From: Vulcanimicrobiota bacterium
Lineage (GTDB): Bacteria; Vulcanimicrobiota; Vulcanimicrobiia; Vulcanimicrobiales; Vulcanimicrobiaceae
Assembly (NCBI GenBank): GCA_963777315.1
Contig: CAVZQC010000004.1
Location: 1-64,000 of the forward strand
DNA length: 64,000 nt
Direction: 5' to 3'
The translations under genes were made by a program, and so were the position numbers. This document shows, piece by piece, positions 28,835 through 48,403 of the stretch. The notes below the pieces were generated by a model. The model did not search any database. It was not told the DNA's origin and worked only from the letters and a program-made list of their open reading frames with translations. Each line of letters starts with the position of its first letter. Within the stretch, counting starts at the first letter, position 1.

Positions 28835-29932
28835 GTGCATCCTCTGGACCGGCTCTACATCGAACGCGCCTGCGAACTGGCGCAGCGCGCAGCCGGAAGC
28901 ACCTCGCCAAATCCTCCGGTGGGCGCCGTCGTCGTCCGCGATGCAACGATTGCCGGCGAAGGCTATCATCATCGTGCGGGCGAGCCGCATGCGGAAGCGA
29001 ACGCGCTGCAGGCCGCGGGAGAACTGGCGCGCGGTGCGACGCTGTACGTTTCCCTGGAGCCCTGCAATCATCAAGGCCGCACGCCCCCATGCACGCATGC
29101 GATCGTGCGTTCCGGCGTAGCGCGGGTCGTTGCGGGGGTTGCCGATCCGGATCCAAGGACGAACGGAAGCGGCGTACGGTATCTGCGCGGTCGCGGCGTG
29201 GCCGTCGACGTGTGCGACGATGCCGGAGCGATCGCGCTGATCGAACCGTTCGCTCGCGCGGTTCGCGCGATGCGTCCGTATGTTTCGCTCAAGATGGCGA
29301 TGTCGCTCGACGGCTACGTTGCCGCTCGGCCGAACGGCCGCGAATGGCTGACGGGATCGCAGGCATTCGATCTGGTTCGCGATATGCGCATCGCTCACGA
29401 TGCCGTCGTTGTGGGAGCCGGTACGGTTCGCGTCGACAATCCGCAACTGACCGTGCGGCCGCCGCACCACCGCTTGCGCGAGTACGTTCGCGTCGTTGCA
29501 TGCGAAAACGATGCGGTCGATCCCGGCAGCGCGATCTTCATGCCCCGGGAAGGCTACGCGAAAACGATCGTTCTTGCTCCGGGCGGCGCGCGCGCGCGTT
29601 TTTCGGCGCTGGAATCCGTTGCCGAGATCGTCTTGATCGGCACGCGCGATTGTATGCAGCTTGACCTGTCGGCTGCACTGCAAGCGCTGCGCGAGCGCGG
29701 AATATCCAGCGTGCTGTGCGAAGGCGGTCCCACCATGGCAGCGCACTTGTTCGAAGAAGGTTTGGTGGACCGATTTCACTGGCTCATCGCGCCGCGTTTG
29801 CTGCGCTCGCAAACGTCGGTTCCGGTCTTGAGTTCGGGCTCGCTGAGCGGCCTGCGGGGCCTTCGATTCGATCGCGTCGAACAGCTGGGAGAAGATGTGC
29901 TCGTTTCCGGAATCGTCGACGCTGATGTTTAG
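28835..29932 (+). CDS. ribD: riboflavin deaminase/reductase
   Basis: PNPPVGAVVV, HAE, LEPCNHQGRTPPC, SLDG, EGGP. Confidence 0.96.
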   Translation: MHPLDRLYIERACELAQRAAGSTSPNPPVGAVVVRDATIAGEGYHHRAGEPHAEANALQAAGELARGATLYVSLEPCNHQGRTPPCTHAIVRSGVARVVAGVADPDPRTNGSGVRYLRGRGVAVDVCDDAGAIALIEPFARAVRAMRPYVSLKMAMSLDGYVAARPNGREWLTGSQAFDLVRDMRIAHDAVVVGAGTVRVDNPQLTVRPPHHRLREYVRVVACENDAVDPGSAIFMPREGYAKTIVLAPGGARARFSALESVAEIVLIGTRDCMQLDLSAALQALRERGISSVLCEGGPTMAAHLFEEGLVDRFHWLIAPRLLRSQTSVPVLSSGSLSGLRGLRFDRVEQLGEDVLVSGIVDADV

Positions 29933-30515
29933 CGGGTTGATCGCGTATCGCGGCAGAGTGCTGCAGAGGACGGTTTTCGAAGAGGGCGGCCTGCTGTTGC
30001 GCGTGCAATGCGAAGGAGCTTCGCATGAGGACGCTCGAGCAGGCGATTCGATTGCCCTCAACGGCGTTTGCCTGACGGCAGTACGCGTCCAAGGGGATGC
30101 GGTCGATTTTCAGGTCCTTCCCGAGACGGTGAACCGTTCGAATTTGGGTTCGCTGAGCGAAGGGGACGCCGTCAACGTCGAATACTCGCTTCGCTTGGGT
30201 GATCGCATCGGCGGTCACTTCGTCTACGGACACGTCGACGCGGCCGCGGAGGTGCTCGGCCGCGTATCCGAAGGGCAGGGCGAACGCATGCGCATTGCGC
30301 TCGATGAGCGCCTCCAGCGGTATGTTTGCGAAAAGGGGTTCGTGAGCGTCGACGGCGTGAGCGTGACGGTCGCGGCGACGGGGCTGAACTGGTTCGAGCT
30401 CGCGCTCATTCCTGAAACGCTGCGCCGCACGACGCTCGGCTCGCGCCGGCTCGGCGAGCGCGTAAACCTGGAAATCGATCCGCTCGCGCGATATGCCGCT
30501 CATGCCCCAGTATAG
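29925..30515 (+). CDS. ribE: riboflavin synthase
   Basis: MFSGLI, GDSIALNGVCLT, GGHFVYGHVD, KGFVSVDGVSVT, VNLEID. Confidence 0.95.
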   Translation: MFSGLIAYRGRVLQRTVFEEGGLLLRVQCEGASHEDARAGDSIALNGVCLTAVRVQGDAVDFQVLPETVNRSNLGSLSEGDAVNVEYSLRLGDRIGGHFVYGHVDAAAEVLGRVSEGQGERMRIALDERLQRYVCEKGFVSVDGVSVTVAATGLNWFELALIPETLRRTTLGSRRLGERVNLEIDPLARYAAHAPV

Positions 30516-33559: not shown

Positions 33560-33844
33560 AGTCCAGACCCCTTACCCAACTCGGCTCCTGCGCCTTGAAT
33601 GGCTGGGAAATAATGCCGGCTACCAGCCGCTCGCATGCACTTGGCGCGCCGACGGGACCTTGTTACGTGGCTTGGCTGCAAGCGGACTGCTGTACTGACG
33701 TTGGCGTGCTTGCGGGGCTCCAGCTCAGCCGAACGCAGAAACCCCACGCAGGACGGCTTGGGCTGAGGGAAACCCCACAAGAAGGGCAAGTCAAGGGAGC
33801 GCCACCTTCAAGACCGTCCGCCGCTTGGGCAGGTTTTGTACGAT

Positions 33845-33870
33845 AAAAGCGACTTAACAGGCGCTTTTTT
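33845..33870. terminator. bidirectional-type terminator
   Basis: AAAAGCG-N10-CGCTTTTTT. Confidence 0.55.
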
Positions 33871-34140
33871 GTGCAGCGTGCCGATTTTGTGAGCAGGCGA
33901 ACAAGGGGACTGGCTTTAGCCAATCCCCATCCGTAACTTCAAGAACGTCAACCTGCTGGAAAGAGCATGAACTAGAAGGGGCTGTTTCGCAAGACCGATT
34001 ATACCGCGGGCTCATCGTTAAGCGTCGGCTCAATAAACGCGGACGACTGCAGAGCCTGCACTCCCACACGATAAGGGGCGCTTTTTGAACGTGAGGTCGG
34101 CGCGCTGCGAACGCGATGGATAGTCTATGCGTCTACCGAC

Positions 34141-34308
34141 AAGCGGGGAATTTGCCCGGTCTGTAAGGGGCACTTCGATATAGGCGACATGGACGCCGAT
34201 CATATTACCTATGGAGTCGAGTAAGGCGGCAAGACAGTGAGTGAGAACTGTCAGATGCTTTGCAAGCCCGATAATAGGGCCAAAGGCGGCAGGTGGTCCG
34301 GCAAGTAA
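34141..34308 (+). pseudogene. HNH endonuclease domain remnant
   Basis: KRGICPVCKGHFDIGDMDADHITYGVE*GGKTVSENCQMLCKPDNRAKGG; in-frame TAA at 34222; no upstream body. Confidence 0.8.
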
Positions 34309-34317
34309 GCCCGGTGT

Positions 34318-34353
34318 TGTCATATTGACAGCATTGGATAATCCTGATATTCT
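34318..34353 (+). promoter_or_regulatory. higBA promoter with palindrome
   Basis: TTGACA-N17-TATTCT ending 6 nt before GTG 34360; inverted repeat TGTCA-TAT-TGACA over the -35 box. Confidence 0.75.
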
Positions 34354-34359
34354 CGGTCC

Positions 34360-34647
34360 GTGAGGATGTTGGGCGGCGTTGAATTGCAAGCCGGCGCGCG
34401 CAAACACGCAGATGCCGCCAAGCCGTTGTCGCTTTGGCGAAAAATCGTCTTGAGCGCACGATGGGAGTCGCTCGTGCAGTTGCACGGGGACTTTCCATCG
34501 GCCGACTACGTTAGGCCGTTCACGGTGTTTAATATTGGGGGCAACAAGTACCGCCTGATAGCCGTCGTAGACTACGCCGACGGCGTGGTGACGATTCGAG
34601 CGTTCCTAACTCACGCTGAATACACGAAGGGTAGGTGGAAAAAATGA
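34360..34647 (+). CDS. higB: HigB-family toxin
   Basis: FPSADYV, TVFNIGGNKYRLIAVVDY, FLTHAEY. Confidence 0.93.
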   Translation: MRMLGGVELQAGARKHADAAKPLSLWRKIVLSARWESLVQLHGDFPSADYVRPFTVFNIGGNKYRLIAVVDYADGVVTIRAFLTHAEYTKGRWKK

Positions 34648-35052
34648 CGGCTGTAGCAGAACGAGAGTACGGAGCTTTGCTCCAAGAGCGACGCCCGCAC
34701 GTGATTCGCTCGAAACGCGCGTACAGCGAAGCGATGCGCGAAATAGAGGCATTGGCGATTCGCGGCAGCGCGCGTTCGTCTGCGGAGACGGAATACTACC
34801 GGGTTCTCTGCGCCTTGGTGGCGGACTACGAACGCTCCGTTGGCGCGGATGAGTGGGAAGTCGAGATGGCGCCGCTCGAAGCGTTGCGAGAGCTTATGGA
34901 GCTGAAAGGGCGTTTCTCAGGCGCAAGTGGCGGAAGCCATCGGGGATCGCGGAAACACGTCGGCTATTCTCAGCGGGCGGAGAAAAATCAGCAAAGCGCA
35001 GGCAAAGGTGCTTGCGAAGCTTTTCCGAGTGGACGCCGGGCTATTTATTTAG
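34644..35052 (+). CDS. higA: HigA-family antitoxin (frameshift near 34905-34910)
   Basis: PHVIRS...ALVADYE...PLEALRELME, then the HTH SQAQVAEAIG...SAILSGRRKISKAQAKVLAKLF in the next frame. Confidence 0.85.
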
Positions 35053-35201
35053 GGCGGTGCTTTCCCGTTCCCGAGCGTCTGCACACAAAATTCGCGCCAC
35101 TGCATACAAAAAGGGAGCCCGCCGAGCCATTTTCTGTGCAAAGCCGACCTGACTCACCAGGGTGCCACACAGGTGGAACAGCCCAAGTATAGGCTTGGAG
35201 C

Positions 35202-36512
35202 ATGGAAACGCCGACCACTCTCCTCCAAGCCGTGACATTCTTTTCCGATCCCGAGCGAGCGTTTGAGTACGCGGTTAAACTGCGCTGGCCGAACGGTATC
35301 GCGTGCCCGCGCATGGGCTGCGGATCGGCAGCGGTACAGTTTATCTCGACCCGCAAGATTTGGCGCTGCAATGAGTGTAAGCGACAGTTTTCCGTAAAAA
35401 CCAAAACTATCTTTGAGGAATCCCCCCTGTCGTTCACCAAATGGCTTCCGGCGATTTGGTTCCTGGCGAATACCAAGAACGGCACATCCTCGCACGAACT
35501 TGGCCGCGCCCTGGGCGTAACGCAGAAAACGGCGTGGTTCATGTTCCATCGTATTCGCGAAGCCATGAAAACGGACGACGGCGCAGCCTTTTCCGGCGAG
35601 GTCGAAGCGGACGAAACCTTCGTCGGCGGCAAAACGCGCACGAATTACTTTTCGCGCAGCGGCTTTCGCAAACTCAAGCACGGACCGGCGACCGGCAAAA
35701 CGACGGTCTTCGGCATGGTTGAGCGCAGCGCCCAGAAAAAACACAGCCGCGTTCGCGCCTTCGTCGTTCCGAACCACAAGGCGTCCGTCTTGTTGCCCAA
35801 GATTTACGCGAACGTCGAGCTCGGCTCGGTTCTCTATACCGACGCCCTTCGGTCGTATCGGCAAGTCGTTCCCGACTACGTTCACGCCTTCGTGGACCAC
35901 TCTATCCGCTACGTTGACGGCCACGTTCATACGAACTGCATCGAAAACTTTTGGTCGTGCCTCAAGCGGACAATCAAGGGGACGTACATCGCTCCGCGTC
36001 CGTTCCACTTAGACCGCTACATCGACGAACAGGTGTTCCGCTTCAATGCCCGCGAGGGCGACGACGCGCAGCGGTTCCTGAATGTACTCAAGAACAGCGA
36101 CGGCAGGCGTGTGACGTATAACGTCTTGCGGAACGAGAACGCGAAACTGCGCGAGGGCAGCGCGGACCTATTCATCAGCCTCCGGCTCTTCCTCGGTAAT
36201 CTCGTCGGTATCGTCGCCGTCTTCTTTTGGGGCCTGGAACAGTTTTCGGCCCAAGTCCTCGAATCGCTTCATGGCTTCATCGCCGTTTACATCGTCATTC
36301 ATTTCGTGCACCTACTGCTCGTCTTTCGGCACAAAGTAGATCAACTTGTACATGACACCGAACCCGGTTTGGCGGCGCGAGCCGTTGCCTTGCACCTCAA
36401 ACCGGCTAATGCGAAACTGAATATGCCTTTCCCCGGGAGCAAGCGCCAAAAAAGGACCACGAGAACATGCCGCCCTGAGATTGGTCGACATAGCCATTAT
36501 TTTCGATACTGA
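35202..36512 (+). CDS. IS1595-family (ISXO2-like) DDE transposase
   Basis: RWPNGIACP..C...WRCNEC zinc ribbon, VTQKTAWFMFHRIREAM, VEADETFVGG, YTD, VHTNCIENFWSCLKR, YIDEQVFRFN; last ~110 codons are run-on over antisense genes. Confidence 0.93.
   Translation: METPTTLLQAVTFFSDPERAFEYAVKLRWPNGIACPRMGCGSAAVQFISTRKIWRCNECKRQFSVKTKTIFEESPLSFTKWLPAIWFLANTKNGTSSHELGRALGVTQKTAWFMFHRIREAMKTDDGAAFSGEVEADETFVGGKTRTNYFSRSGFRKLKHGPATGKTTVFGMVERSAQKKHSRVRAFVVPNHKASVLLPKIYANVELGSVLYTDALRSYRQVVPDYVHAFVDHSIRYVDGHVHTNCIENFWSCLKRTIKGTYIAPRPFHLDRYIDEQVFRFNAREGDDAQRFLNVLKNSDGRRVTYNVLRNENAKLREGSADLFISLRLFLGNLVGIVAVFFWGLEQFSAQVLESLHGFIAVYIVIHFVHLLLVFRHKVDQLVHDTEPGLAARAVALHLKPANAKLNMPFPGSKRQKRTTRTCRPEIGRHSHYFRY
36168..36302 (-). 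CDS. small acidic protein (44 aa) facing the transposase
   Basis: AGGTG RBS; MNDDVNGDEAMKRFEDLGRKLFQAPKEDGDDTDEITEEEPEADE. Confidence 0.6.
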   Translation of the reverse strand: MNDDVNGDEAMKRFEDLGRKLFQAPKEDGDDTDEITEEEPEADE

Positions 36513-36969
36513 TCGGCGGTCGAAACATGTACGAACGGACCGGCTCAATGTGCCAATAGATGTGAAGTTTACCCTGCGCCGGAAAAACGAAATCGGCTTG
36601 CAGTTCTTGGCCGAATGGATATTGCAAGGGGAATTGATCGATCCAGGGCAACTTCTTTAGGTTGAAATCCCACAGAAGCGATTGCTCCTGAACCGCTTGG
36701 ACGCGAGCGTTGTGCGCCGTCCAACGCTCTACAGTGCTGTTTTTTGGGTGGGACAGCGAATAGAACCCAAGCGCGCAAAGGACTAGGCTTGCAAGGGACA
36801 GCGCCAGCATGACTTTTTCTCTGCCCGTGGGCCGCTCAAGGAGCCCGGCCTTAGCCACGAACTTCTTCGCAACCCGATGGTCGATGCGGAAATAGGCGAG
36901 CGGAGCACCTAGGGCGCCGATAATTGCCAGAATAAATTCGATGTGCGCCGCCATGCTGGCTAGGTCCAT
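36312..36969 (-). CDS. hypothetical membrane-anchored passenger protein (probable frameshift at the 6-nt homopolymer 36448-36453)
   Basis: Two N-terminal TM segments; removing one T joins ...GGMFSWSF to LALAPGERHIQFR... Confidence 0.55.
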
Positions 36970-37022
36970 ATATCGCGAGGCGCTTAAATCCGCTTGGTGA
37001 GTCAGGGAGTCAGGTATATCAA

Positions 37023-37053
37023 CTTGACAATTGTTAAGCCCGCGGCGTAACCT
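37023..37053 (+). promoter_or_regulatory. ribBA promoter with overlapping palindromic operator candidate
   Basis: TTGACA (37024-29)-N18-TAACCT (37048-53)-N6-GTG; CTTGACAATTGTTAAG (37023-37038) is self-complementary at 14/16 positions. Confidence 0.75.
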
Positions 37054-37059
37054 TTTGGC

Positions 37060-38490
37060 GTGCCGCCCTTCGCTGAAGAGCTCAAAACCGCCATGGATGC
37101 GGCCGGCCTATCGGCTGCCGACTTGTCCGAGCGCAGCGGCTTAACGGAGGCGGCTATTTCGTATCTGCGTTCGGGTCAGCGCGAACCATCGTATCGTTCG
37201 CTTCAACGGCTCACGCAGGTGCTGCCGGATCTGGCCGGCACGCTCGAACGCGCTTCGCCCTTCGACTCGATCGACGACGCCGTCAAAGACATTCGAGCCG
37301 GCAAGATGGTCATCGTGCTCGACGACGAGGATCGCGAAAACGAGGGCGACCTGGTGATGGGCGCGCAGATGATCACCCCGGACGCCGTCAACTTCATGCG
37401 CAAGCACGCGGGCGGATTGATTTGCGTGCCGATGATCGGCAAGCGGCTGGACGAGCTGCATCTGCCGCAGATGGTCTCCGAGAACAGTGCCGTGCACGAA
37501 ACCGCATTCACCGTTTCGGTTGAAGCGCGCGGCCGAACCACCACGGGTATTTCAGCACACGATCGCGCCGCGACGATTCAAGCGCTGCTCGATCCGGCGA
37601 CGAAACCGTCGGACCTGCTGCGTCCCGGCCATACGTTTCCGCTGCGTGCACGGGAAGGCGGCGTGCTGGTGCGCGCCGGACAGACCGAAGCGTCGGTCGA
37701 TTTGGCGCGGCTGGCTGGCCTGTATCCCGCCGGCGTTATCTGCGAGATCATGGCCGAGGACGGCACGATGGAGCGGCTCGACGGACTGATCGCGTTCGCC
37801 AAACGCCATCAGCTCAAACTCGTCACGGTCAAGGATCTCATCGCACACCGCTGGCGCAACGAGAAACTGCTCAAACGGATCGCCGAGTTCAAGCTGCCCG
37901 CACACACGGGTACCTGGACGGGCTACGCATTTGAGAATACGATCGACGCCAACACTCACGTCGCGCTGGTCATGGGGGACATCGGGGACGGAAAGGACCT
38001 GCTGGTGCGGGTCCACTCCGAGTGTCTGACGGGCGATGCGCTGCATTCGCTTCGCTGCGACTGCGCCGCGCAGCGCGACGGCGCGATGCGAATCATCGCC
38101 AAAGAAGGCCGCGGCGTCTTCTTGTACCTGCGCCAGGAAGGACGCGGAATCGGCCTGGCCAACAAATTGCGCGCGTACCAGCTGCAGGATCAAGGCGCCG
38201 ACACGGTCGAGGCAAATCTTGCGCTGGGTCTTCCCGTCGATAAGCGGGACTACGGCATAGGATCGCAGATCCTGGCCGACTTGGGGGTGCGGGACATGCG
38301 CATCATCACCAACAATCCGCGCAAGATTTTCGGCCTGGAGGGATACGGCTTGAAGATCGTGGGCCGCGTGCCGATGCACACTGAACCGACGCAATACAAT
38401 AAGCGGTATATCGCAACGAAACGCAGCAAATTGGGTCACATGTTCGAGGAGCCCAAGGCCGGTCCGCTGCCGCACGGCGATCACGCGTGA
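37060..38490 (+). CDS. ribBA: XRE-HTH fused to bifunctional DHBP synthase / GTP cyclohydrolase II
   Basis: N-terminal FAEELKTAMDAAGLSAADLSERSGLTEAAISYLRSGQREPSYRSLQRL, then DRENEGDL, RPGH, GQTEA, RVHSECLTGD..SLRCDC, QEGRGIGL, TNNP. Confidence 0.95.
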   Translation: MPPFAEELKTAMDAAGLSAADLSERSGLTEAAISYLRSGQREPSYRSLQRLTQVLPDLAGTLERASPFDSIDDAVKDIRAGKMVIVLDDEDRENEGDLVMGAQMITPDAVNFMRKHAGGLICVPMIGKRLDELHLPQMVSENSAVHETAFTVSVEARGRTTTGISAHDRAATIQALLDPATKPSDLLRPGHTFPLRAREGGVLVRAGQTEASVDLARLAGLYPAGVICEIMAEDGTMERLDGLIAFAKRHQLKLVTVKDLIAHRWRNEKLLKRIAEFKLPAHTGTWTGYAFENTIDANTHVALVMGDIGDGKDLLVRVHSECLTGDALHSLRCDCAAQRDGAMRIIAKEGRGVFLYLRQEGRGIGLANKLRAYQLQDQGADTVEANLALGLPVDKRDYGIGSQILADLGVRDMRIITNNPRKIFGLEGYGLKIVGRVPMHTEPTQYNKRYIATKRSKLGHMFEEPKAGPLPHGDHA

Positions 38491-38984
38491 CCGGTGCGGC
38501 CAAAGCGAATGCGATTGACTGCAGCGGCAAACGCTTTGCAATCATCAGCGCGCAATTCTACGAAGATGTGGCGGCGTGGCTCGAGGACGGTGCGCGCCGC
38601 GCTTTGGCCGACTGCAACGTGCGCGAGGAGGACATCGCGCGCTATCGCGTTCCCGGATGCTTCGAGCTGCCGCCGGCAGCCAAACGACTGATCGAAGCGG
38701 ATGAGAAGTTGGATGCGCTGGTCGCGCTCGGTGCTGTCGTGCGCGGACAGACGCCGCACTTCGAATACGTGGCCGGAGAGTGCGCGCGAGGCATCATGAC
38801 CGTGCAAATTGCAACCGGCGTCCCCATTGGATTCGGCGTGCTTACGACCGAGACGCTCGACCAAGCGCAGGAGCGGGCCGATCCGGCACGCGGCGACAAG
38901 GGGTATCATGCCGCCATTGCGGCGGCGATTTTGCTGCACGTGCCCGAAGAAACGGCACCCAAGGCATTAGGCTTTCGGGCATAG
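38487..38984 (+). CDS. ribH: lumazine synthase
   Basis: VPGCFELP, LGAVVRGQTPHFEYV, PIGFGVLT. Confidence 0.95.
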   Translation: MTGAAKANAIDCSGKRFAIISAQFYEDVAAWLEDGARRALADCNVREEDIARYRVPGCFELPPAAKRLIEADEKLDALVALGAVVRGQTPHFEYVAGECARGIMTVQIATGVPIGFGVLTTETLDQAQERADPARGDKGYHAAIAAAILLHVPEETAPKALGFRA

Positions 38985-39006
38985 CAGCGCCAAAAGAGGC
39001 TGTAAT

Positions 39007-40023
39007 TTGCAAAACCGCAACCGCGTAGAGACCATTCGCTGGACCGGTGACGCCATCGAGTACATCGATCAGCGGCTGCTTCCGCACGAAGAAGTGGTGC
39101 GGCGCGCGGGCACCGTGGACGAAATCGAAAACGCGATCAAAACGCTGGCCGTACGCGGCGCACCGTGCATAGGCGTGTTCGGCGCATACGGCGTTGCTCT
39201 GCTGCGTCACGTGCTCGACGACGGGGCCGCCTTCCACGCCGCGGTGCATCGGATAAAAAATGCGCGCCCCACCGCCGTGAATCTCACGTGGGCCATCGAT
39301 CGCGTGCTGCGCGCGCAGGACATGGTTGCCGAAGCCCACGCCATTCACGCCGAGCAGCGCGACGTCGACCGGCGAATCGGCGAAGCCGGGGCCGAGTTGA
39401 TCTGCGACGGTGCGACGGTTCTCACGCACTGCAATACCGGCCCCCTCGCCACTGCCGGTGAAGGAACTGCGCTGGGCATTATCATCGCGGCTGCCCGAAC
39501 CGGCAAACGCCTGCGCGTATTCATCGATGAAACGCGTCCGCTGCTGCAAGGAGCGCGCCTAACGTACTACGAGCTCGAGCAGGTTGGGGTCGATGCGGTT
39601 CTAATCGTCGACTCTGCCGCCGCGATGACGATTCAGCGCAAAGGAGTCGACGCCGTTCTGGTAGGCGCGGACCGCATCGCCTGCAACGGCGATACGGCCA
39701 ACAAGGTCGGCACGTACGCCCTGGCAATCGCTGCTGCGCATCACGGCATTCCGCTTTATGTGGCCGCGCCGCGTTCGACGTTCGATTTCTCGCTGCGCGC
39801 CGGCGCGGACGTCGAGATCGAAGAGCGCGCAGCCGACGAGGTCACCGCGTACAACGGCACGCGCACGGCGCCGGAAGGGGCTCACGCATACAATCCGGCG
39901 TTCGACGTTACGCCCGGCCATCTGGTGACGGCCTTCATCACCGAGTACGGGATCGTGCGGCCGCCCTATGCAGAATCGGTGCCGGATCTGCAGACGCGCC
40001 CCATCCTCACGGCGCCGGCATGA
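39007..40023 (+). CDS. mtnA: methylthioribose-1-phosphate isomerase
   Basis: DQRLLP, VRGAP, RPTAVNL, THCNTG, ETRPLLQGARLT, ANKVGTY, NPAFDVTP. Confidence 0.95.
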   Translation: MQNRNRVETIRWTGDAIEYIDQRLLPHEEVVRRAGTVDEIENAIKTLAVRGAPCIGVFGAYGVALLRHVLDDGAAFHAAVHRIKNARPTAVNLTWAIDRVLRAQDMVAEAHAIHAEQRDVDRRIGEAGAELICDGATVLTHCNTGPLATAGEGTALGIIIAAARTGKRLRVFIDETRPLLQGARLTYYELEQVGVDAVLIVDSAAAMTIQRKGVDAVLVGADRIACNGDTANKVGTYALAIAAAHHGIPLYVAAPRSTFDFSLRAGADVEIEERAADEVTAYNGTRTAPEGAHAYNPAFDVTPGHLVTAFITEYGIVRPPYAESVPDLQTRPILTAPA

Positions 40024-40817
40024 AGCACCGGTACGGAGAAATGACGTGGCCGGAGATCAAGGATGCGGCCGCCGCGGGCCGCGTTGCCGTTATTCCGATT
40101 GCCACGATCGAGGACCACGGTCCGCATCTGCCGGTCGACACCGACGTGATGCTCTGCGTGTCGGTGTGCGAAGCGGCGGTCGAGCGCGCCGGCGATCGCG
40201 CCGTGCTGGTTCCGCCCATCAATCACGGATACAGCCCGCATCACATGGACTTTCCCGGACCCATAACGATCGGCGCGGAGACGCTGATCCGCTACGGCGT
40301 CGACGTGTGCAAAAGTTTGGCGCACCATGGATTCAAACGGATGCTGATCGTCAACGGGCACGGAAGCAATACGCCCTTTGTCGACATCATTGCGCGGTTA
40401 ACGGTGGTGGAAACCGGCTGTCTAGCCGCAGGCGTGAACTACTGGGCCGCTCCGGGTGTACGTGAAATCGTCGAATCGCTGCGCGAATCAGAAAGGGGCG
40501 GCATGAACCATGCCGGCGAGTTCGAAACGTCGATGTACATGATGCTGCGCCCCGATCTCGTCGACATGTCCAAGGCCGTTGCGGAAATGAACCATCGGCC
40601 CACCAAAAATTACTGGACCGATCTGATCGCCGGCGACGGGCCGCTGATGATGATGGAACCGTGGAGCGCTTTGAGCGAAAGCGGGGTCATGGGCGATCCC
40701 AGCAAGGCTACCCCCGAAAAAGGCCGCCGCTTTTTCGAAGCAGCGGTGAACGGAATCGTCGAACTCATCGGAGAGATGCGCGACCGGGCGCCGGCGGTTC
40801 GCAAGGATCGCCATTAG
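40020..40817 (+). CDS. creatininase-family amidohydrolase
   Basis: EDHGPHLPVDTD, NGHGSN, HAGEFETS, GVMGDP. Confidence 0.92.
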   Translation: MKHRYGEMTWPEIKDAAAAGRVAVIPIATIEDHGPHLPVDTDVMLCVSVCEAAVERAGDRAVLVPPINHGYSPHHMDFPGPITIGAETLIRYGVDVCKSLAHHGFKRMLIVNGHGSNTPFVDIIARLTVVETGCLAAGVNYWAAPGVREIVESLRESERGGMNHAGEFETSMYMMLRPDLVDMSKAVAEMNHRPTKNYWTDLIAGDGPLMMMEPWSALSESGVMGDPSKATPEKGRRFFEAAVNGIVELIGEMRDRAPAVRKDRH

Positions 40818-42456
40818 CCTGCGCGCGCTGCACGCTGTAGCGTTTGCAGCGGCGCTGCTGCCCGTTTTGAGCGCGTGTGCGCAGCCCGAGCACGGCGGCA
40901 GGCGCGGCGGCAATCCTTGGACGATTCCGGGCGTGCTGCGCATCGCGGGGCGCCAGCAGCCGGACAACCTGAATCCGCTGCTGGGCACGCAAACCGTCGT
41001 TACCGATCTGTCGATGTTTTGGGGCGGCTATCTGTTCGACTGGAGCGACCGCGACGCGCTGGTTCCCGAGCTGGCCGTGCGCGTGCCGAGCATGGAGAAC
41101 GGCGACATTTCACGCGATGGACTGCGCATAACGTATCATTTGCGCCGCGGTGTAAAGTGGCAAGACGGCGCGCCGTTCGACGCCGGCGACGTCATTTTCA
41201 CCTGGCATGCCATGATGAACCCGCGCAACCTGGTCGTGAGCCGGTTCGGGTACGATTTGATTGCGGCGATCGACGAGCGCGACCCGTACACGATCGACGT
41301 TCATCTCAAAAAGAGGTTCTCAGCGTTCGTCGATACGTTCTTTACCATGGCCAACCACGCCGACTGCATTTTGCCGCGGCATCTGCTCGCGCGCTACCCG
41401 GACATCAACCGCGTAGCGTACAATTCACTGCCCGTGGGCACCGGACCGTTCCGCATGGTCAACAACCAAAAGGGCTCTGCGCTTACGTTCCTGGCCAACG
41501 ATTCGTACTGGCGCGGCCCTCCAAAACTGCGGCGCATAGATTACCGGATCATCGAAAGCGACAACACGATGCTGACCCTGCTGCAAACGCACGCGATCGA
41601 TTTTTACTATCGGGCCTCCGAGAACCAGCTTTCGAGCCTTCGCAACATTCCCGGAACGCGGGTAGTGATTTCGCGGTTCACTCGTTTCGCCGATCTCGGG
41701 CTCAACGCCGCCAACCCCGCGCTGGCGGACGTGCGGGTTCGGCGCGCGCTGGCGTACGCTTTGGATCGAAACGCGCTGGTGCGAAAAGTTACGCACGGGG
41801 TCGCCCTGGTCGCCGACAGCGATCAACCGTCGACGTTTTGGGCATACGATCCGAATATCATGCGCTACCCATACGACCCGAAGCGAGCCGCGGCGCTGCT
41901 CGACCAAGCCGGATGGCGCGTCGCAGGCGGCGGAATCAGAACGAAAAACGGCGCGCCGCTGCGTTTGGAACTGGTCAGTTTCACCGGTTCCGCTACCGCG
42001 GAGGCGACCGAAGTGTTCGTGCAGGAAGCGTGGCATCAAATCGGCGTCGACGTCGCCATCAAGAATTTCTCGTCGTCGCAGCTCTATGCTACACTCGGCG
42101 GCGGCGGCATCGAGCAGTCGGGCAAATTCGACGTTGCCTTCGAGAACTGGGCCAACGGCATCGATCCGGACGACTCGATTCTCTTTCGCTGCGACATGGC
42201 TCCGCCCGCCGGTTGGAACATCTATCATTTTTGCAGCCCGAAGTTGGACCGAGCCGAGGACCGCGCGCTCTCTGCGTACGACCGCCCAACGCGCAAGGCG
42301 ATGTACGCGCGCGTTCAGAGCATCGTCGCGCGGCAATTGCCCATTATCGTTCTGTGGTACCAACGCGAGCTGGACGTGGTCAACACCGATTTTCGCAATT
42401 ACAAGCCGGCGCACGCGGTCACGCCCTTTTGGAACACGTGGGAGTGGGCGATTTGA
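40813..42456 (+). CDS. peptide ABC transporter substrate-binding lipoprotein (probable ATT start)
   Basis: The signal peptide (I)SLRALHAVAFAAALLPVLSA-C needs a start upstream of TTG 40867; family-5 SBP motifs LRRGVKWQDG, PVGTGPF, VRRALAYA. Confidence 0.9.
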   Translation: MSLRALHAVAFAAALLPVLSACAQPEHGGRRGGNPWTIPGVLRIAGRQQPDNLNPLLGTQTVVTDLSMFWGGYLFDWSDRDALVPELAVRVPSMENGDISRDGLRITYHLRRGVKWQDGAPFDAGDVIFTWHAMMNPRNLVVSRFGYDLIAAIDERDPYTIDVHLKKRFSAFVDTFFTMANHADCILPRHLLARYPDINRVAYNSLPVGTGPFRMVNNQKGSALTFLANDSYWRGPPKLRRIDYRIIESDNTMLTLLQTHAIDFYYRASENQLSSLRNIPGTRVVISRFTRFADLGLNAANPALADVRVRRALAYALDRNALVRKVTHGVALVADSDQPSTFWAYDPNIMRYPYDPKRAAALLDQAGWRVAGGGIRTKNGAPLRLELVSFTGSATAEATEVFVQEAWHQIGVDVAIKNFSSSQLYATLGGGGIEQSGKFDVAFENWANGIDPDDSILFRCDMAPPAGWNIYHFCSPKLDRAEDRALSAYDRPTRKAMYARVQSIVARQLPIIVLWYQRELDVVNTDFRNYKPAHAVTPFWNTWEWAI

Positions 42457-43493
42457 AGTTCTACGATTTCGTCGACAAAAAGCCGCCCATCGGCAAGCTC
42501 GTTATCGTCGAAGGCACCGAACGCGTTCTGGCCGACCGGGCACTGGAGCTGGTGCTGGACTGCGTTCTTCCTGCGGACGTGCGCGACATGAATCTCGAGC
42601 GTTTCCCGGCCGAGCAGCTCGACGGTACCACGCGCCTGCGGGAAGCGGTGCAGGCCATGCCTTTTTTGGCCGCGTCCCGCGCGGCAGTGGTTACGGACGC
42701 ACAGACGCTCAAAGCGGCGATGCGCCGCGAGTTGTGGGACGTTGCGCAAACGGTGCCGGACGGCAACACGCTGGTTATTTGCGATTTGCTTTCGCCGCGC
42801 TCAAAACGGCCGGAACCCCTTGGCGCGGGAGGCTCGCACGGCGCTCTGCGCATCGACACGAGCGCCAATGAGGACGTGCGCTCACGGTATATCCGGGAAA
42901 CGCTCGAAGAATTGCACGTTACGGCGCATCCGCGCGTGGTTGCCGTTCTGGCCGGCAGCCAGGCGGATCTGGCGTCGGTTCGAAACGATCTCGAAAAGCT
43001 TGCGCTCGGCGGGCGGAAAATTACGTATGCCGACCTGGAACGGGAAAGTTTGTCGGTGGAAGACCCCAAAGCGTACCAGTACGGCGGCGCGCTGGTGGAA
43101 GGACGCGTAGCGCACGCGATGCAGATTGCGCACGAACTGTTCGCAAACGATCGCCGTTCGGCTGCGATAGCGCTGATCTCCGCCGCCGCGACCGAGTGCG
43201 CAATACTGTGGGAGCTCGCGCGGGGCGGCGAGATTCCGGCGCGGCTGCGCTGGCGCGAGCGCGTTTTGCGACCGATTGCCGCGCGCGTGGGCGAACGCCG
43301 GGCTCGTCGCGCATTCGAGCGCGCCTTGAGCGCCTTTGAAGCCGTCGTGACCGGCAAGGTCGACGACCCTGAACTCGTCGTCGACATGCTCACCGCCGAA
43401 CTCTCCACGCTCGATCCGGCCAGCCGTCGGGCGCACGGTCCCCACGGCACGAGGGCGCCTGTGCCCGAACGCGAAGAGATTCCGACCCCATGA
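42453..43493 (+). CDS. holA: DNA polymerase III delta subunit (divergent)
   Basis: TTG overlaps the upstream stop; LVIVEGTE, MPFLA...VVTDA, DLASVRNDLEKLAL. Confidence 0.8.
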   Translation: MKFYDFVDKKPPIGKLVIVEGTERVLADRALELVLDCVLPADVRDMNLERFPAEQLDGTTRLREAVQAMPFLAASRAAVVTDAQTLKAAMRRELWDVAQTVPDGNTLVICDLLSPRSKRPEPLGAGGSHGALRIDTSANEDVRSRYIRETLEELHVTAHPRVVAVLAGSQADLASVRNDLEKLALGGRKITYADLERESLSVEDPKAYQYGGALVEGRVAHAMQIAHELFANDRRSAAIALISAAATECAILWELARGGEIPARLRWRERVLRPIAARVGERRARRAFERALSAFEAVVTGKVDDPELVVDMLTAELSTLDPASRRAHGPHGTRAPVPEREEIPTP

Positions 43494-44905
43494 AATACGA
43501 CACCTACGCTTCTCCGTTCTCGTGGAGATACGGTCGCGCGGAATTGCGCGCGCTTTTTTCCGAAGAGCAGCGGCGCAAGTTGTGGCGGCGCGTATGGGTC
43601 GAGCTTGCGCGCGAGCAAAGCCGCAACGGCTTGGTGACGCCGGCGGAGCTTGCCGACATCGAGGCGCACGCCGGCGACGTCGACATCGACGCCGCTTTAG
43701 CGGTAGAACGCGAAATTCATCACGATTTGATGGCGGAGATTCGCGTGTTTGCCTCGCAGGCTGCGGTGGGCGGCGGAAAGCTGCATATGGGATCGACCTC
43801 GATGGACATCGAAGACACCGTCGAAACCTATCGTCTTCGGCGAGCCTTGTCGGTCGTTGGGAGCGCGCTGGGAGACCTGCTGCGGGCGTTCGGCGGCAAA
43901 ATCCGCGAATACGCCGACTTGGTCTGCATGGCGTTCACGCATTTGCAGCCCGCCGAACCCACGACGCTTGGATACCGGCTTGCGGTCTACGCTCAAGATT
44001 TAGCGATCGACCAAGGCAATCTGCGCTTCGTATTCGACAACTTGACCGCAAAGGGATTGCGCGGTGCGGTCGGTACGTCCGCGTCCTACGAGCAGCTGCT
44101 CAGCGGCAACGGCTCGTCGGCCAAAATGGAACAGGCGGTGCTCGAGCGTTTCGGCATCGACGCACGCGAAGTCAGCACGCAAACGTATCCTCGTAAGCTC
44201 GATTACCTGTTGCTTACCGCGCTTGCCGGTGTGGGTGCGTCGCTGTCGAAATTTGCGGCCGACGTGCGCATCTTGAGCTCTCCGGAGTTCGGCGAAGTGT
44301 TCGAGCCGTTCGAAAAAGCGCAGGTCGGCAGTTCGGCCATGCCGTTCAAACGCAATCCCATTTTATGCGAGCGCATCGGTTCGCTCGCGCGCTTGCTGCC
44401 CGCATATGCCGATGTGGCCTGGCAAAACGCTGCGACCAATTACCTGGAACGCACGCTTGACGACAGCGCGAACCGCCGGACGATACTGCCCGAGGCATTG
44501 CTGTGCACCGACGAGATCGTGTCCATTGCCGGGCGCGTAGTCGTTGGGCTTCGCGTCGATGCGCAGCGCATGGCACAGAATCTGCGCACTTACGGCCCGT
44601 TTGCCGGAACGGAGTCCGTATTGATCGAAGGCGTGCGCGCGGGCGGCAACCGGCAGCAGTTGCACGAAGTGCTGCGCGCGGCGGCAATGGAATCGTGGAA
44701 TGCGATCGCGCAGGGCAAAGACAACCCGCTCGGACGCCTCCTCACCGAGGAGCACGAGCTGACCAGCCGCGTCGATCCGGCCGAAATCCGGCGCATGCTG
44801 GATCCCGGCAAACATATCGGGACGGCAGCGGAGCGAGCGCGTAAACTGGCTGCGCGAATCGATTCGCTGCCTGCGTTTCCCCAGCAAAAGGACGTCGACG
44901 CGTGA
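43490..44905 (+). CDS. purB: adenylosuccinate lyase
   Basis: SPFSWRY, HDLMA, FTHLQPAEPTT, QTYPRK, GSSAMPFKRNP, ERTLDDSA. Confidence 0.96.
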   Translation: MKYDTYASPFSWRYGRAELRALFSEEQRRKLWRRVWVELAREQSRNGLVTPAELADIEAHAGDVDIDAALAVEREIHHDLMAEIRVFASQAAVGGGKLHMGSTSMDIEDTVETYRLRRALSVVGSALGDLLRAFGGKIREYADLVCMAFTHLQPAEPTTLGYRLAVYAQDLAIDQGNLRFVFDNLTAKGLRGAVGTSASYEQLLSGNGSSAKMEQAVLERFGIDAREVSTQTYPRKLDYLLLTALAGVGASLSKFAADVRILSSPEFGEVFEPFEKAQVGSSAMPFKRNPILCERIGSLARLLPAYADVAWQNAATNYLERTLDDSANRRTILPEALLCTDEIVSIAGRVVVGLRVDAQRMAQNLRTYGPFAGTESVLIEGVRAGGNRQQLHEVLRAAAMESWNAIAQGKDNPLGRLLTEEHELTSRVDPAEIRRMLDPGKHIGTAAERARKLAARIDSLPAFPQQKDVDA

Positions 44906-46104
44906 ACAAAGGCATCGAAATAGCCCGCGGCAAGACGAAGATGCTGTATGAAGCTGCCGGTCAGCCGGACATGCTCGTGATCAAGCAAACCGACGCCATT
45001 TCCGCGGGCGACGGCGCGCGCCGCGACGAGATCGCCGGAAAGGGACGGCTTGCGGCGCAAACGACCGCGCGCGTGTTCCGGCTGCTCAATCTTTGCGGCT
45101 TGCCCACGCACTACTTGAACGGCGGCGAAGACGACGACGACAACGAAATGCTGGTTCGGCGCTGCAACATGATCCCGCTCGAGGTCGTCGTGCGCGGCGT
45201 CGCGGCCGGTTCGCTGGTACGGCGCAATCCTGGCCTGCAGCGCGGTTCTCTTCTGGTGCCGCGCATGGTCGAGTTCTTCGTCAAGAACGATGCCGAGCAC
45301 GATCCGCTGATCGCTCCGGACGCGATCGTCGCGCAAGGCATCGCAAACCCGGCTGAAATCTCCGCGATGACCGAAATTTCGCGCCTGGCTTTTGAGGTGC
45401 TCGCGCACGCCTGGCGCAAGCGCGACGTGCTCCTGGTCGATCTCAAAGTGGAATTCGGGCGGCTGGGAAGCGGAGAGAACAAAGGCCAGCTGGTCATCGC
45501 CGACGTGATCGACAACGACTCCTGGCGAATTTGGCCGCAAGGTCGTGAAGATCGCATGCTCGACAAGCAGATGTACCGCAATCTGGAGATCGTCGACGAT
45601 GGAGCGCTCGCGAGCGTGAAGAGCGCGTACGAGCAGGTCGCCGAAATGGTCGGCGCGTTCCCGGTCATGCGTCCTGGGATGATCGCGCTGATCGCCGACT
45701 CCGCCGACTCGACCGCACAGCTCAACGCCGTAGCGCAGGCGTTGGGACAGCTCGGGCTCCCGGTCATCCGGCACGTTGCCAGCGCGGCGCGCACGCCCGG
45801 GTACGTACTGCAGCTGCTCCAACAGCACGATGCCACCTTTGCGCGGCTGCTGTACATCACGTTCGGCGGTCCGGATCTCGCGCTCTACGCAATGGTGCAG
45901 AACGGCACGAGCAATCCCGTAATCGACGGCTCCGGCGATCCGAGCGGCATCGCGCTGCACTGTGCGAAGATCCTCGCACTCGAGGACACGGTGCTTTTCG
46001 GGCGCACGCTGCTGGTGCAGACCAACGCGCGCTCGGCGGTGCTTGCCGCGGACGCTCAGCTCAACGCCCAGCAGCAACCCGTCCAACAATCCACTCTTGC
46101 ATAG
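44902..46104 (+). CDS. purC: SAICAR synthetase with degenerate C-terminal PurE-like domain (PAICS architecture)
   Basis: GKTK, IPLEVVVR, VDLKVEFG, ADVIDNDSWRIWP, DKQMYR; C-terminal VASAARTP...YITFGG...NPVI. Confidence 0.9.
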   Translation: MNKGIEIARGKTKMLYEAAGQPDMLVIKQTDAISAGDGARRDEIAGKGRLAAQTTARVFRLLNLCGLPTHYLNGGEDDDDNEMLVRRCNMIPLEVVVRGVAAGSLVRRNPGLQRGSLLVPRMVEFFVKNDAEHDPLIAPDAIVAQGIANPAEISAMTEISRLAFEVLAHAWRKRDVLLVDLKVEFGRLGSGENKGQLVIADVIDNDSWRIWPQGREDRMLDKQMYRNLEIVDDGALASVKSAYEQVAEMVGAFPVMRPGMIALIADSADSTAQLNAVAQALGQLGLPVIRHVASAARTPGYVLQLLQQHDATFARLLYITFGGPDLALYAMVQNGTSNPVIDGSGDPSGIALHCAKILALEDTVLFGRTLLVQTNARSAVLAADAQLNAQQQPVQQSTLA

Positions 46105-48403
46105 CTTTCGCGTTCTCGGCCTGCGCGACGACGAACTCAAAACCGCCGCCGCACACGCCGGTCTCGCGCTGCGCGTCGACGAACTGCGCCGGATCGCCCG
46201 GCGCCTGGAGCGCGACCCGACAATGGTGGAAGTGCGGGCGTTTGACGCACAGTGGAGCGAGCACTGCTCGTACAAGAGCAGCCGCCACCACCTGCGTAAG
46301 CTGCCCGTGCACGGGCCTACCGTCATGCAGGGACCGGCCGAGGACGCGGGCATTCTGCATTTGGGCGAATGGAACGGCGAGAAGTGGGGCGTCGCCATCG
46401 CGCACGAGTCGCACAACCACCCTTCGCAAGTCGTTCCGTTCGAGGGCGCCGCAACCGGCGTGGGCGGGATCGTGCGCGACGTGCTGTGCATGGGCGCCGA
46501 AGTCGTCGCGCTGGCCGATCCGCTTCGGTTCGGGCGCATCGACGATCCGCAATCCCACCAACGCTACGTCGCGCAGAGCGTGGTCGACGGCATAGCGGCC
46601 TACGGCAATGCCATCGGGGTGCCGAATATCGCCGGCGACGTGTATTTCGACGAAGGCTTCGACGACAATTGCCTGGTCAACGTCGTGGCGCTGGGCTTGG
46701 TAAAGGAAAGCGACGTCATACACTCCGCAGCGCCGGCGCAGTCTGCCGGCTGGGACATCGTGCTCGTGGGCAAGGCGACCGACACCAGCGGTTTCGGCGG
46801 AGCCGCGTTCTCTTCGATCGCCCTCGACCAAGCCAACGAAGATGCCAACAAAGGCGCCGTGCAAGTTCCGGATCCGTTCCTCAAAAACGTGATCATGCGC
46901 GCAACGTACGCCGTGTTCGCCTACTTGCGGGCGAACGCGATTGCGGCCGGTTTTAAGGATCTGGGCGCCGGCGGCATCATGGGCTGCAGCGCGGAACTGT
47001 GCGCGGCTGGCGGCTTGGGCGCGATCGTCGATTTGGACGACGTCAATACCGCCGTTGACGGTATGGCGCCCGAAGTGATTGCGGTCGGCGAAACGCAGGA
47101 GCGGTTGTGCTGGATACTGCCCGGCGACGCGACGGCTCGCGTTCTGCAGATCTATAACGAGGAATATTCACTACCGCAAATCGCGCGAGGCGCTTGCGCT
47201 ACGGTGATCGGTGCGGTACAACCCGAGCCGCGTTACGTGCTGCGCGCCGGCGGTGAGACGGTAATGGATGTGCCGATCGACTTTTTGACCGGTTCGATTC
47301 GCGACGAGCTGCCGGTGCGGGCGATGAGCGAACGCCACGCCGATCGCGCGGAGCAGCGATATATTACCGGCCGCCACCGCGTTGGCGATCTCTTACCGGC
47401 GGTGCTAGCGCATCGCGACGTGTGCTCGCGCGAGCCGCTGTACGTGCGGTACGATGGTGTCGTGCGCGGTACGACGGTCATCGCGCGTGGAGCAGCGTGC
47501 GCGGGGGTTATTGCGCCGCTGCACGGCGCTCCGTTCGGGATAGCGCTCGCAGTTGCAGGCAATCCGCGATACGGCAAGCTCGATCCGATTCTGGCCGCGC
47601 AGCATGCAGTGCTGCACGCCGTCAGAAAGGTCGTTTCGGTTGGCGCTAGGCCGTTGGGGCTTACAGACTGTCTGAATTTCGGCAATCCTCACAACGTCGG
47701 ACAGTATTCGCAGATGGTCGCATGCATTGACGGCCTCGCGCTTGCTGCCGGCCGGCTCGAGGTGCCGTACGTTTCCGGCAACGTCAGCCTGTACAACGAA
47801 TCGCGCGGCGGAGGCGCCGTTCCGGCTTCGCCGATCGTTGCTTGCGTGGGAGCCTTGCAGCACGTCGCCGGGGTGATTACCGCGCCGTTGAAATGCGCCG
47901 GCAGCACGCTGTTTTTGGTGGGGCGTCCGCACAACGCCGTCGGCGGCGCAGCCTTTGCAGAACTGCTCGGGCAAACCGGCGGCCCCGTTGCGCCGATAGA
48001 TTACGACCGCGCAAACGCTGAGATAGCATTTATGCTCAGGGCCGCGCACGACCGACTCGTCCTGTCGGCGAGAAGCGTCGGGAACGGCGGCGCGATTGCA
48101 GCGGTGTGCCGAATGGCATTCGCGACGCCCGCCGACGCGCCGATCGGTGCTGAGCTGTCCGCGGCGCAAACCTGGACGAACGGCGCGGTGGGCGAGCTCG
48201 AAGCGTATTTCGGTGAATCCGGCGGGTTCGTCGTCGAGACCGCGCAGCCCAAAGCGCTCGTGGCGCTTGCGCCGCAAGCGCTCGACTTGATTCCCATCGG
48301 ACATACCCGTTCCGGAGCGCTGCTCGAGATGGCGGAGGCTTCGTTCGACTTGCGCGAACTGCATCGCGCCTGGCAGGCTCCGCTCGCGCAGGTGTATGCG
48401 TAA
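46097..48403 (+). CDS. purL: FGAM synthase subunit PurL
   Basis: WSEHCSYKSS, ESHNHPS, GAATGVGGIVRD, DLGAGG, DCLNFGNP, SGNVSLYN. Confidence 0.96.
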   Translation: MHSFRVLGLRDDELKTAAAHAGLALRVDELRRIARRLERDPTMVEVRAFDAQWSEHCSYKSSRHHLRKLPVHGPTVMQGPAEDAGILHLGEWNGEKWGVAIAHESHNHPSQVVPFEGAATGVGGIVRDVLCMGAEVVALADPLRFGRIDDPQSHQRYVAQSVVDGIAAYGNAIGVPNIAGDVYFDEGFDDNCLVNVVALGLVKESDVIHSAAPAQSAGWDIVLVGKATDTSGFGGAAFSSIALDQANEDANKGAVQVPDPFLKNVIMRATYAVFAYLRANAIAAGFKDLGAGGIMGCSAELCAAGGLGAIVDLDDVNTAVDGMAPEVIAVGETQERLCWILPGDATARVLQIYNEEYSLPQIARGACATVIGAVQPEPRYVLRAGGETVMDVPIDFLTGSIRDELPVRAMSERHADRAEQRYITGRHRVGDLLPAVLAHRDVCSREPLYVRYDGVVRGTTVIARGAACAGVIAPLHGAPFGIALAVAGNPRYGKLDPILAAQHAVLHAVRKVVSVGARPLGLTDCLNFGNPHNVGQYSQMVACIDGLALAAGRLEVPYVSGNVSLYNESRGGGAVPASPIVACVGALQHVAGVITAPLKCAGSTLFLVGRPHNAVGGAAFAELLGQTGGPVAPIDYDRANAEIAFMLRAAHDRLVLSARSVGNGGAIAAVCRMAFATPADAPIGAELSAAQTWTNGAVGELEAYFGESGGFVVETAQPKALVALAPQALDLIPIGHTRSGALLEMAEASFDLRELHRAWQAPLAQVYA

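Follow-up and report, generated by a model that had tools for sequence, protein, structure and literature searches.

The riboflavin biosynthesis enzyme RibBA of the bacterium studied here carries a DNA-binding head of the helix-turn-helix (HTH) type, and this conserved HTH-RibBA very probably represses its own gene. The fusion itself is real: in the window (by which we mean the whole stretch of 64,000 nucleotides that was analysed) it is encoded by one open reading frame with a GTG start (37060-38490, + strand; 476 aa), in which an XRE-HTH is followed by RibB and RibA. In all likelihood the protein is a working RibBA that would autorepress ribBA-ribH through a RibB-mediated dimer. Because head and palindrome have been gained and lost together, and because an unrelated group has built a similar fusion with another palindrome, we regard the enzyme as very likely self-controlling, independently of the usual RNA switch. 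For lineages that lack an FMN riboswitch, the HTH fusions offer a tangible DNA-binding candidate, and an operator for it is predicted in each of two unrelated groups. Its head has been overlooked; databases label these proteins plain RibBA or RibB.

The initial annotation had described an XRE-type HTH fused to an intact RibB-RibA, and profile searches bear this out. Pfam HTH_3 matches residues 8-55 with an E value of 4.5e-7 for the whole protein and 1.4e-8 for the domain alone (30-35 bits against the Pfam curated cut-off of 23). The XRE/Cro-CI type HTH domain spans residues 1-56 (37060..37227, + strand) and includes the recognition helix region TEAAISYLRSGQREP; five helices are seen in the AF2 model (4-15, 19-26, 30-38, 45-54 and 56-63), 12 columns are invariant among 30 orthologues, and the HTH heads have regulator matches in PHROGs. 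Residues 57-67 (37228..37260, + strand) form a linker that is variable by comparison of conservation and length, with a mean conservation of 0.44 against 0.78 for the HTH and 0.87 for RibB, and a length range of 6 residues. The RibB (DHBP synthase) domain (37261..37854, + strand), which contains the predicted dimer interface, has the acidic loop RENEGD, the Cys, TTGIS, RPGH and CEI motifs, and its catalytic-site motifs are invariant. In the RibA (GTP cyclohydrolase II) domain with its zinc-binding Cys motif (37876..38442, + strand), C322, C333, C335, Y373 and R396 are invariant in 45 sequences. The roles of the RibB motifs, and of the zinc cysteines and catalytic Arg and Tyr of RibA, are those we take them to have from general knowledge. 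DHBP_synthase (residues 73-262) and GTP_cyclohydro2 (273-438) both score above the Pfam cut-offs, and the NCBIfam models PRK09311, TIGR00506 and TIGR00505 are all passed. These models begin at residue 65 or later, i.e. past the HTH; PRK09311 covers the whole enzyme part (616 bits, cut-off 569), which with its catalytic motifs thus resembles bifunctional RibBA (PRK09311; PDB 4I14), while residues 1-62 are covered by none of 21 PDB sequence matches. A fold search gave RibBA, RibBX, RibB and RibA among the matches listed. HTH-ribBA is the sole ribBA copy in the window genome (90% complete), which argues for enzyme activity of the product. From the HTH up to Met83, located inside RibB, there is no in-frame ATG, GTG or TTG, so that a start after the HTH would cut RibB; the annotation had named translation from such a start as what would speak against its interpretation.

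Upstream of the gene, the sequence confirms the arrangement TTGACA-N18-TAACCT claimed at the outset, with a putative -35 box TTGACA of conserved spacing (37024..37029, + strand) and, 18 nt after it, a TAnnnT-type -10 box TAACCT (37048..37053, + strand) ending 6 nt before the GTG at 37060. The -35 box is the left half of the palindrome CTTGACAATTGTTAAG (37023..37038, no strand), the candidate operator, which would occupy about -37 to -22 for a transcript that begins at the GTG. This sequence is self-complementary at 14 of its 16 positions. Such palindromy alone is weak, being reached by 2969 of 2,825,504 genomic 16-mers (22 of them equally AT-rich); we take the palindrome as real because it is conserved across orthologous loci. 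A strict sigma-70 scanner did not call the TTGACA-N18-TAACCT promoter of HTH-ribBA. A position weight matrix (PWM), derived from 41 of the loci and therefore partly circular in its scores on them, found one strong site in the own genome, that of HTH-ribBA (28.9; next 12.8). No operator was found before ribD-ribE (28835..30515, + strand; 6.5 kb upstream of HTH-ribBA), and hence only part of the riboflavin pathway would be controlled. The possibility that the spacer half is a general extension of -35 boxes was rejected: it occurs in 1 of 26 TTGACA promoter-like sites of the own genome, which is this one.

Enough upstream DNA was available for 117 loci, and removal of unpublished ones and duplicates left 91 distinct regions. 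Counts over these 91, in which related genomes are not independent of one another, leave out loci obtained from the unpublished genomes G008, G019, G021, G028, G029, G048 and G059; the weak-match, riboswitch, extra-match, tandem-site and distribution tallies and the PWM include them, and the distribution tally further includes the unpublished G206, G234, G250, G288, G372 and G392. The site is present in all 91 regions, so the palindrome is indeed conserved in orthologues. In its spacer half-site, which sigma-70 does not require, the bases hardly vary (G 91, T 90, A 90 and A 91 of 91). The one position of the right half that does vary is the counterpart of a G fixed by the -35 role alone. Spacing between the -35 and -10 boxes is a normal 16-18 nt across loci. 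In 61/91 loci the end of a TAnnnT box is separated from the start codon by 6-8 nt, and a Shine-Dalgarno (SD) core occurs in 8/91, which leads us to predict a leaderless mRNA. One site is found in 82 loci and two in the other nine, mostly about 29 bp apart; some two-site loci read TTAAC, TTAGC or TTTAC in place of TTGAC, from which we derive the symmetric consensus TTnACR-NN-YGTnAA. A search with a strict tandem-site pattern picked out 3 of 401 genomes; the pattern proved too stringent to be of use. Residue 42 co-varies with the half-site, Glu going with ACA/TGT in 66/66 cases and other residues with a CG variant in 11/25; this is mostly confined to one clade and thus not independent evidence, and the tree used here contains one aberrant long row and an incomplete careful search.

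The distribution was assessed in 400 other genomes of the phylum with a profile of the HTH and the start of RibB (threshold E < 1e-30). This survey detected the fusion in 269 of the 296 genomes of the own family (Vulcanimicrobiaceae) and in 5/5 of its sister family, and in none of the 99 other Vulcanimicrobiota genomes (0/30 in the other family of the class, 0/69 in the rest of the phylum). In that other family 27/30 genomes match the profile with a best E of 3e-21, the level of RibB alone. Seventeen genomes of the own family gave no profile match, and in the two of these that were checked no ribBA could be found at all. Another ten gave weak matches. Three of them are truly HTH-less, two are frameshifted with HTH and site retained, four are truncated by the end of a contig, and in the last one the query had no match. 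Across all GTDB species the recognition-helix pattern gave 155 confirmed stretches, the best 80 of which comprise 77 in frame with a RibB motif, one with a variant motif, one at a contig edge and one broken; three of the records carry titles of other phyla. The system evidently belongs to one order, of soil bacteria, and not to the whole phylum.

Where the head is missing, the site is missing too. The usual order in the HTH-less family is ribD-ribE-ribBA-ribH, and no site was found in 18 of 18 HTH-less sister-order loci (best PWM score 11.5). Within the own family, G127, G178 and G192 are devoid of both HTH and site (best PWM scores 1.4, -0.9 and 2.8); G127 retains TTGACA-N17-TAGCCT-N6-ATG, the spacer half alone having decayed. 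The RibBA proteins of these genomes occupy three separate positions within the fusion clade, where the starred branches force three changes, and a single clade of the fused proteins was rejected (AU p=0.012) in a quick LG+G4 family tree that carries a long-branch warning at the outgroup. By this comparison, head and site have been gained and lost together. Two curiosities of the survey may be mentioned. A sister-family genome (L042, G041:C136) has an HTH-ribB fragment plus site on another contig in addition to a ribBA that starts without HTH, which may be a second copy or a binning error. Two records with one isolate title (L078 and L126) each have an HTH-ribBA with its own site, possibly through duplication or a mixed bin.

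An HMM search of 1.84 billion representative sequences revealed other HTH-RibB proteins among its best 150 matches. A Hyphomicrobiales fusion family yielded 599 matches, the named ones in the best 120 being Aestuariivirga, Parvibaculaceae and Rhizobiales; since in these best 120 of 599 RENEGD is kept throughout (120/120) and the zinc-Cys motif in none (0/120), we designate the proteins HTH-RibBX. Of 222 metagenome loci found for this family 80 were examined, and 62 of these are fused. The palindrome TATTAGC-N3-GCTAATA was matched at 12 or more of 14 positions in 51/57 distinct leaderless upstream regions, and at none of 219,733 other positions of the same loci (about 3 kb flanks); it covers the -10 box and ends 6-8 nt before the ATG in 52/57. 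The palindromes of the two families do not cross-match, and their recognition helices differ (TQGRVSQ versus TEAAISY; 27% identity between the profiles). Five unfused homologues with examined neighbours are short cro-like genes that face a CI-like repressor and have the same promoter layout, and the linker ATG is kept in 53/57 fused Hyphomicrobiales proteins, with an SD core in 41; these features point to a captured prophage cro gene that would have lost its stop codon. The birth of an enzyme-regulator is traceable in this case: the alphaproteobacterial version still displays its cro-like origin and the old enzyme start codon. As internal ATG and SD core are kept, one HTH-RibBX gene (L152-L216) may yield two products, the repressor and an enzyme without the head. 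Eight alphaproteobacterial loci (L189, L191-L193, L195-L197 and L202) have a pair of weaker operators, in most cases separated by about 33-35 bp, which parallels the two-site subset of Vulcanimicrobiales.

A third small fusion group, from Dehalococcoidia/Chloroflexota, consists of three proteins, and its RibA motif is intact in both full-length ones; an unnamed RibB with a Cro-like head is possibly a fourth fusion. In a tree of 38 RibB domains the Vulcanimicrobiales fusions stand beside their unfused relatives, and a single clade of all fusions was rejected with an AU p of 0.008, in a quick LG+G4 analysis with a long-branch warning and with unfused RibBX left out. HTH-RibB(A) fusions evidently have at least three origins, a head having been joined to the N-terminus of RibB each time. 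Besides RibB clusters, the Atlas search gave one Pseudomonadota cluster below the threshold, in which 33% of the members carry HTH_3; it serves as a lead only. The single 520-aa protein P0150, in which a TetR HTH and RibB are joined via an apparently frameshifted stretch, may be an artefact.

We propose that the RibB homodimer holds two HTH heads together, and that the paired heads would occupy both half-sites and thereby obstruct RNA polymerase; negative feedback would then set the levels of RibBA and RibH. The controlled unit is probably ribBA-ribH, which includes both entry steps of the pathway; ribH (lumazine synthase; 38487..38984, + strand) is likely its second gene because the ribH GTG overlaps the ribBA stop codon, and it follows ribBA in 14/14 longer loci. 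The probable starting point of the module is a small leaderless XRE gene that regulated itself, which would have landed with promoter and operator between ribE and ribBA and then fused to ribBA; the parallel event in Hyphomicrobiales would have involved a prophage cro-like gene. We infer DNA binding, the sign of regulation and the dimer geometry. Repression is the likely sign, as read solely from where the site lies: over a normally spaced -35 box here, and over the -10 box in the second family. Autoregulation through the palindrome had been claimed from the window sequence, and three comparative observations argue strongly for it: the conserved spacer half-site, the three separate co-losses, and a second family with a different helix and palindrome. 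All solved RibB structures are homodimers according to the available parts of PMC10366380 and PMC13151069. A dimer model of residues 1-270, formed via the RibB surface, scored 0.82 against 0.00 for the best control (pLDDT 92; 98% of contacts agreeing between runs), passing a mark that is reached by 20/30 solved pairs and 1/23 single chains. Given the likeness to solved RibB dimers, this pass was expected. The confident interface includes no HTH residue and says nothing either way on contact between the HTHs.

Within the autorepression reading, plain dosage feedback has a chance approaching even, and feedback gated by a ligand on the enzyme part (FMN, ribulose 5-phosphate, GTP or a metal) is a serious though somewhat doubtful possibility. 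The latter is a stronger form of the same explanation, with a riboswitch-like job: the RibB or RibA/RibX part would sense one of these ligands and switch DNA binding, a proposal to which we give roughly one chance in three. In favour of it, the RibB N-terminus acquired a head on at least three occasions, once where the GTP cyclohydrolase II (GCHII) half is degenerate. Wang and co-workers are said to have found in 2019 that FMN inhibits RibB. R114, A117 and G118 of RibB differ from the outgroups, with R114 and G118 falling in the predicted dimer interface; however, the three HTH-less revertants retain this signature, and the linker varies in sequence and length. RbkR is a tested precedent in the riboflavin pathway (PMC5397151, in part), and RibX regulates RibB activity according to the parts available of PMC10012899 and bioRxiv 2025.05.05.652280; against this, a review states, in the part available (PMC13151069), that riboflavin levels do not regulate the rib enzymes directly. 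A substrate-sensing repressor, moreover, must release DNA upon binding its substrate, and nothing here indicates such coupling. If a ligand gates binding, HTH-RibBA would found a new trigger-enzyme family and might serve as a biosensor for flavin or a precursor. A broader and more speculative proposal, which we think rather unlikely, is that bacteria have more than once captured phage-type repressor heads, complete with leaderless promoter and operator, and mounted them on the RibB dimer, RibB being the sensor. If true, a protein stand-in for the FMN riboswitch would have arisen on at least three occasions, in Vulcanimicrobiales, Hyphomicrobiales and Dehalococcoidia, and the enzyme that opens flavin synthesis would turn out to have an allosteric function coupled to a ligand.

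Autorepression has to be weighed against activation, or activation at low and repression at high level, as in RbkR, lambda CI at PRM and the C proteins of restriction-modification systems. RbkR is a proposed activator (PMC5397151, in part), C proteins are often leaderless members of the XRE family with two operators (PMC2632904, in part), and two sites occur in nine of our loci as well as in the eight alphaproteobacterial ones. We nevertheless consider activation improbable: the site lies over a consensus -35 box with a normal 16-18 nt spacer and is single in 82/91 loci, and in the second family it lies over the -10 box and the head is Cro-like.

Still less probable is a passenger HTH, with some other transcription factor acting at the palindrome. 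Near-identical palindromes (TTGACA-N2-TGTCAA; L062:1984-1997 and L064:2004-2017) do precede arsR-like genes of arsenic-resistance-type operons in two sister-order genomes without HTH, so that the palindrome word can serve other regulators; these are probably ArsR operators, the arsR naming being a reading of the sequence. Against a passenger HTH stand the three separate co-losses of HTH and site, a recognition helix as invariant as the catalytic residues, the presence of one site per genome, and the second fusion family with its own site. A wider regulon was considered and rejected, since the PWM scan gave one strong site in the own genome and the ten further exact matches inspected in relatives are insert junctions, arsR-like promoters and unrelated places; the regulon apparently comprises the own promoter alone, without ribD-ribE.

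That the palindrome is a by-product of an insertion sequence (IS) end or of the -35 box, with no regulatory role, is largely refuted and has a near-negligible probability: the site adjoins an IS1595-type end both in the window and in 14/91 loci, site copies flank inserts in two genomes, and 14/16 palindromes are common in the genome, but 77/91 loci have the site without that end, and the spacer half is conserved across two families and decays on HTH loss while the -35 box persists.

The IS1595-type terminal repeat (37009..37026, + strand) abuts the operator and regenerates its left edge, formally providing the first 4 nt (CTTG) of the window palindrome. An IS origin of the palindrome, raised as a concern in the initial annotation, was rejected on the count just given, and the site is for that reason to be seen as target and not product of the IS. 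In G002 and G020 the opposite flank of the insert bears the inverted end and a second site copy with the same centre. This fits elements with ends CAAG.../...CTTG that would insert into the palindrome and rebuild it through an 8-bp duplication, which is presumably the target duplication size of the IS1595 family. A matching left junction of the IS1595-type element was not found in the window. The stretch before the operator (window 33600-37026; L244-L247 and L249) is a hotspot of nested IS1595-type elements, and a second type of IS end lies within 40 nt of the palindrome in 6/91 loci.

Bacterial riboflavin genes are controlled by the FMN riboswitch, and some lineages have none, according to the parts of the literature available. 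The initial annotation had seen no leader at HTH-ribBA that could hold such a riboswitch, and RF00050 was found in 0/20 loci and in 0/61 and 0/151 phylum genomes (control 7/14). The HTH-less relatives have neither fusion nor riboswitch, from which it follows that control by the HTH is dispensable and that the fusion fills a gap instead of replacing a riboswitch. No paper on an HTH-RibB or HTH-RibBA regulator was found in a full-text literature search that covered few subscription papers and no supplementary tables.

Among known systems, the archaeal riboflavin kinase/regulator RbkR is similar in that a DNA-binding domain is fused to an enzyme of flavin synthesis, binds rib operators, occurs where FMN riboswitches are missing and is lost in some lineages (PMC5397151, in part). 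According to the same source, RbkR differs in having a winged HTH on RibK, a late FMN-binding enzyme, and a multi-operon regulon that it probably activates. HTH-RibBA is bacterial, with an XRE/Cro head on the first enzyme and a candidate site at its own promoter only. It is not a member of the RbkR family: its domains are HTH_3, DHBP_synthase and GTP_cyclohydro2 and not a winged HTH with a CTP-dependent riboflavin kinase, and its own genome has one strong site in place of a regulon of several rib and transporter operons. The head of NadR is of the XRE type. BirA, NadR and PutA are trigger enzymes with a repressor domain on a pathway enzyme (PMC5397151, in part); HTH-RibBA likewise joins a DNA-binding domain to an enzyme of the regulated pathway, with enzyme motifs intact. 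These three differ in their other enzyme domains and in their proven ligand control, and HTH-RibBA would work as a trigger enzyme only if ligand gating holds, which is conceivable without being the favoured case. C proteins and phage Cro/CI share the XRE HTH and palindromic operators on their own promoter, are often leaderless and sometimes have two operators (PMC2632904, in part); they are stand-alone proteins, whereas the HTH-RibBA head sits on a housekeeping enzyme, and no restriction genes were seen adjoining HTH-ribBA. RibBX, i.e. RibB with a degenerate GCHII domain (PDB 6MNZ; PMC10012899, in part), is the enzyme part of the Hyphomicrobiales fusion, in contrast to the window protein, which keeps an intact RibA with zinc cysteines; the part of PMC10012899 available describes no DNA-binding head on RibBX.

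Between ribD-ribE and ribBA lie genes for a thioesterase, two dehydrogenases and a ferritin-like protein (so read from the sequence, without a Pfam match), higB and an IS1595 family transposase (35202..36512, + strand; Pfam and NCBIfam profiles), a neighbour outside the regulatory unit. Inside this mobile region, higB (Pfam HigB_toxin) is followed by an apparently frameshifted higA-like frame (34360-35041), and a 187-aa ORF without Pfam match (36406-36969, - strand) between transposase and IS end is likely a passenger gene. Downstream, the order ribH-mtnA-(unnamed ORF)-purB-purC-purL (window 38487-48403; L256-L269) is common to fused and unfused genomes; two loci of this gene-order set show no site solely because the examined stretch ends before it. 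A tie of the fusion to purB-purC-purL was rejected, as HTH-less genomes share this gene order, which therefore predates the fusion. The purC frame in the window has an additional C-terminal part that resembles AIR carboxylase.
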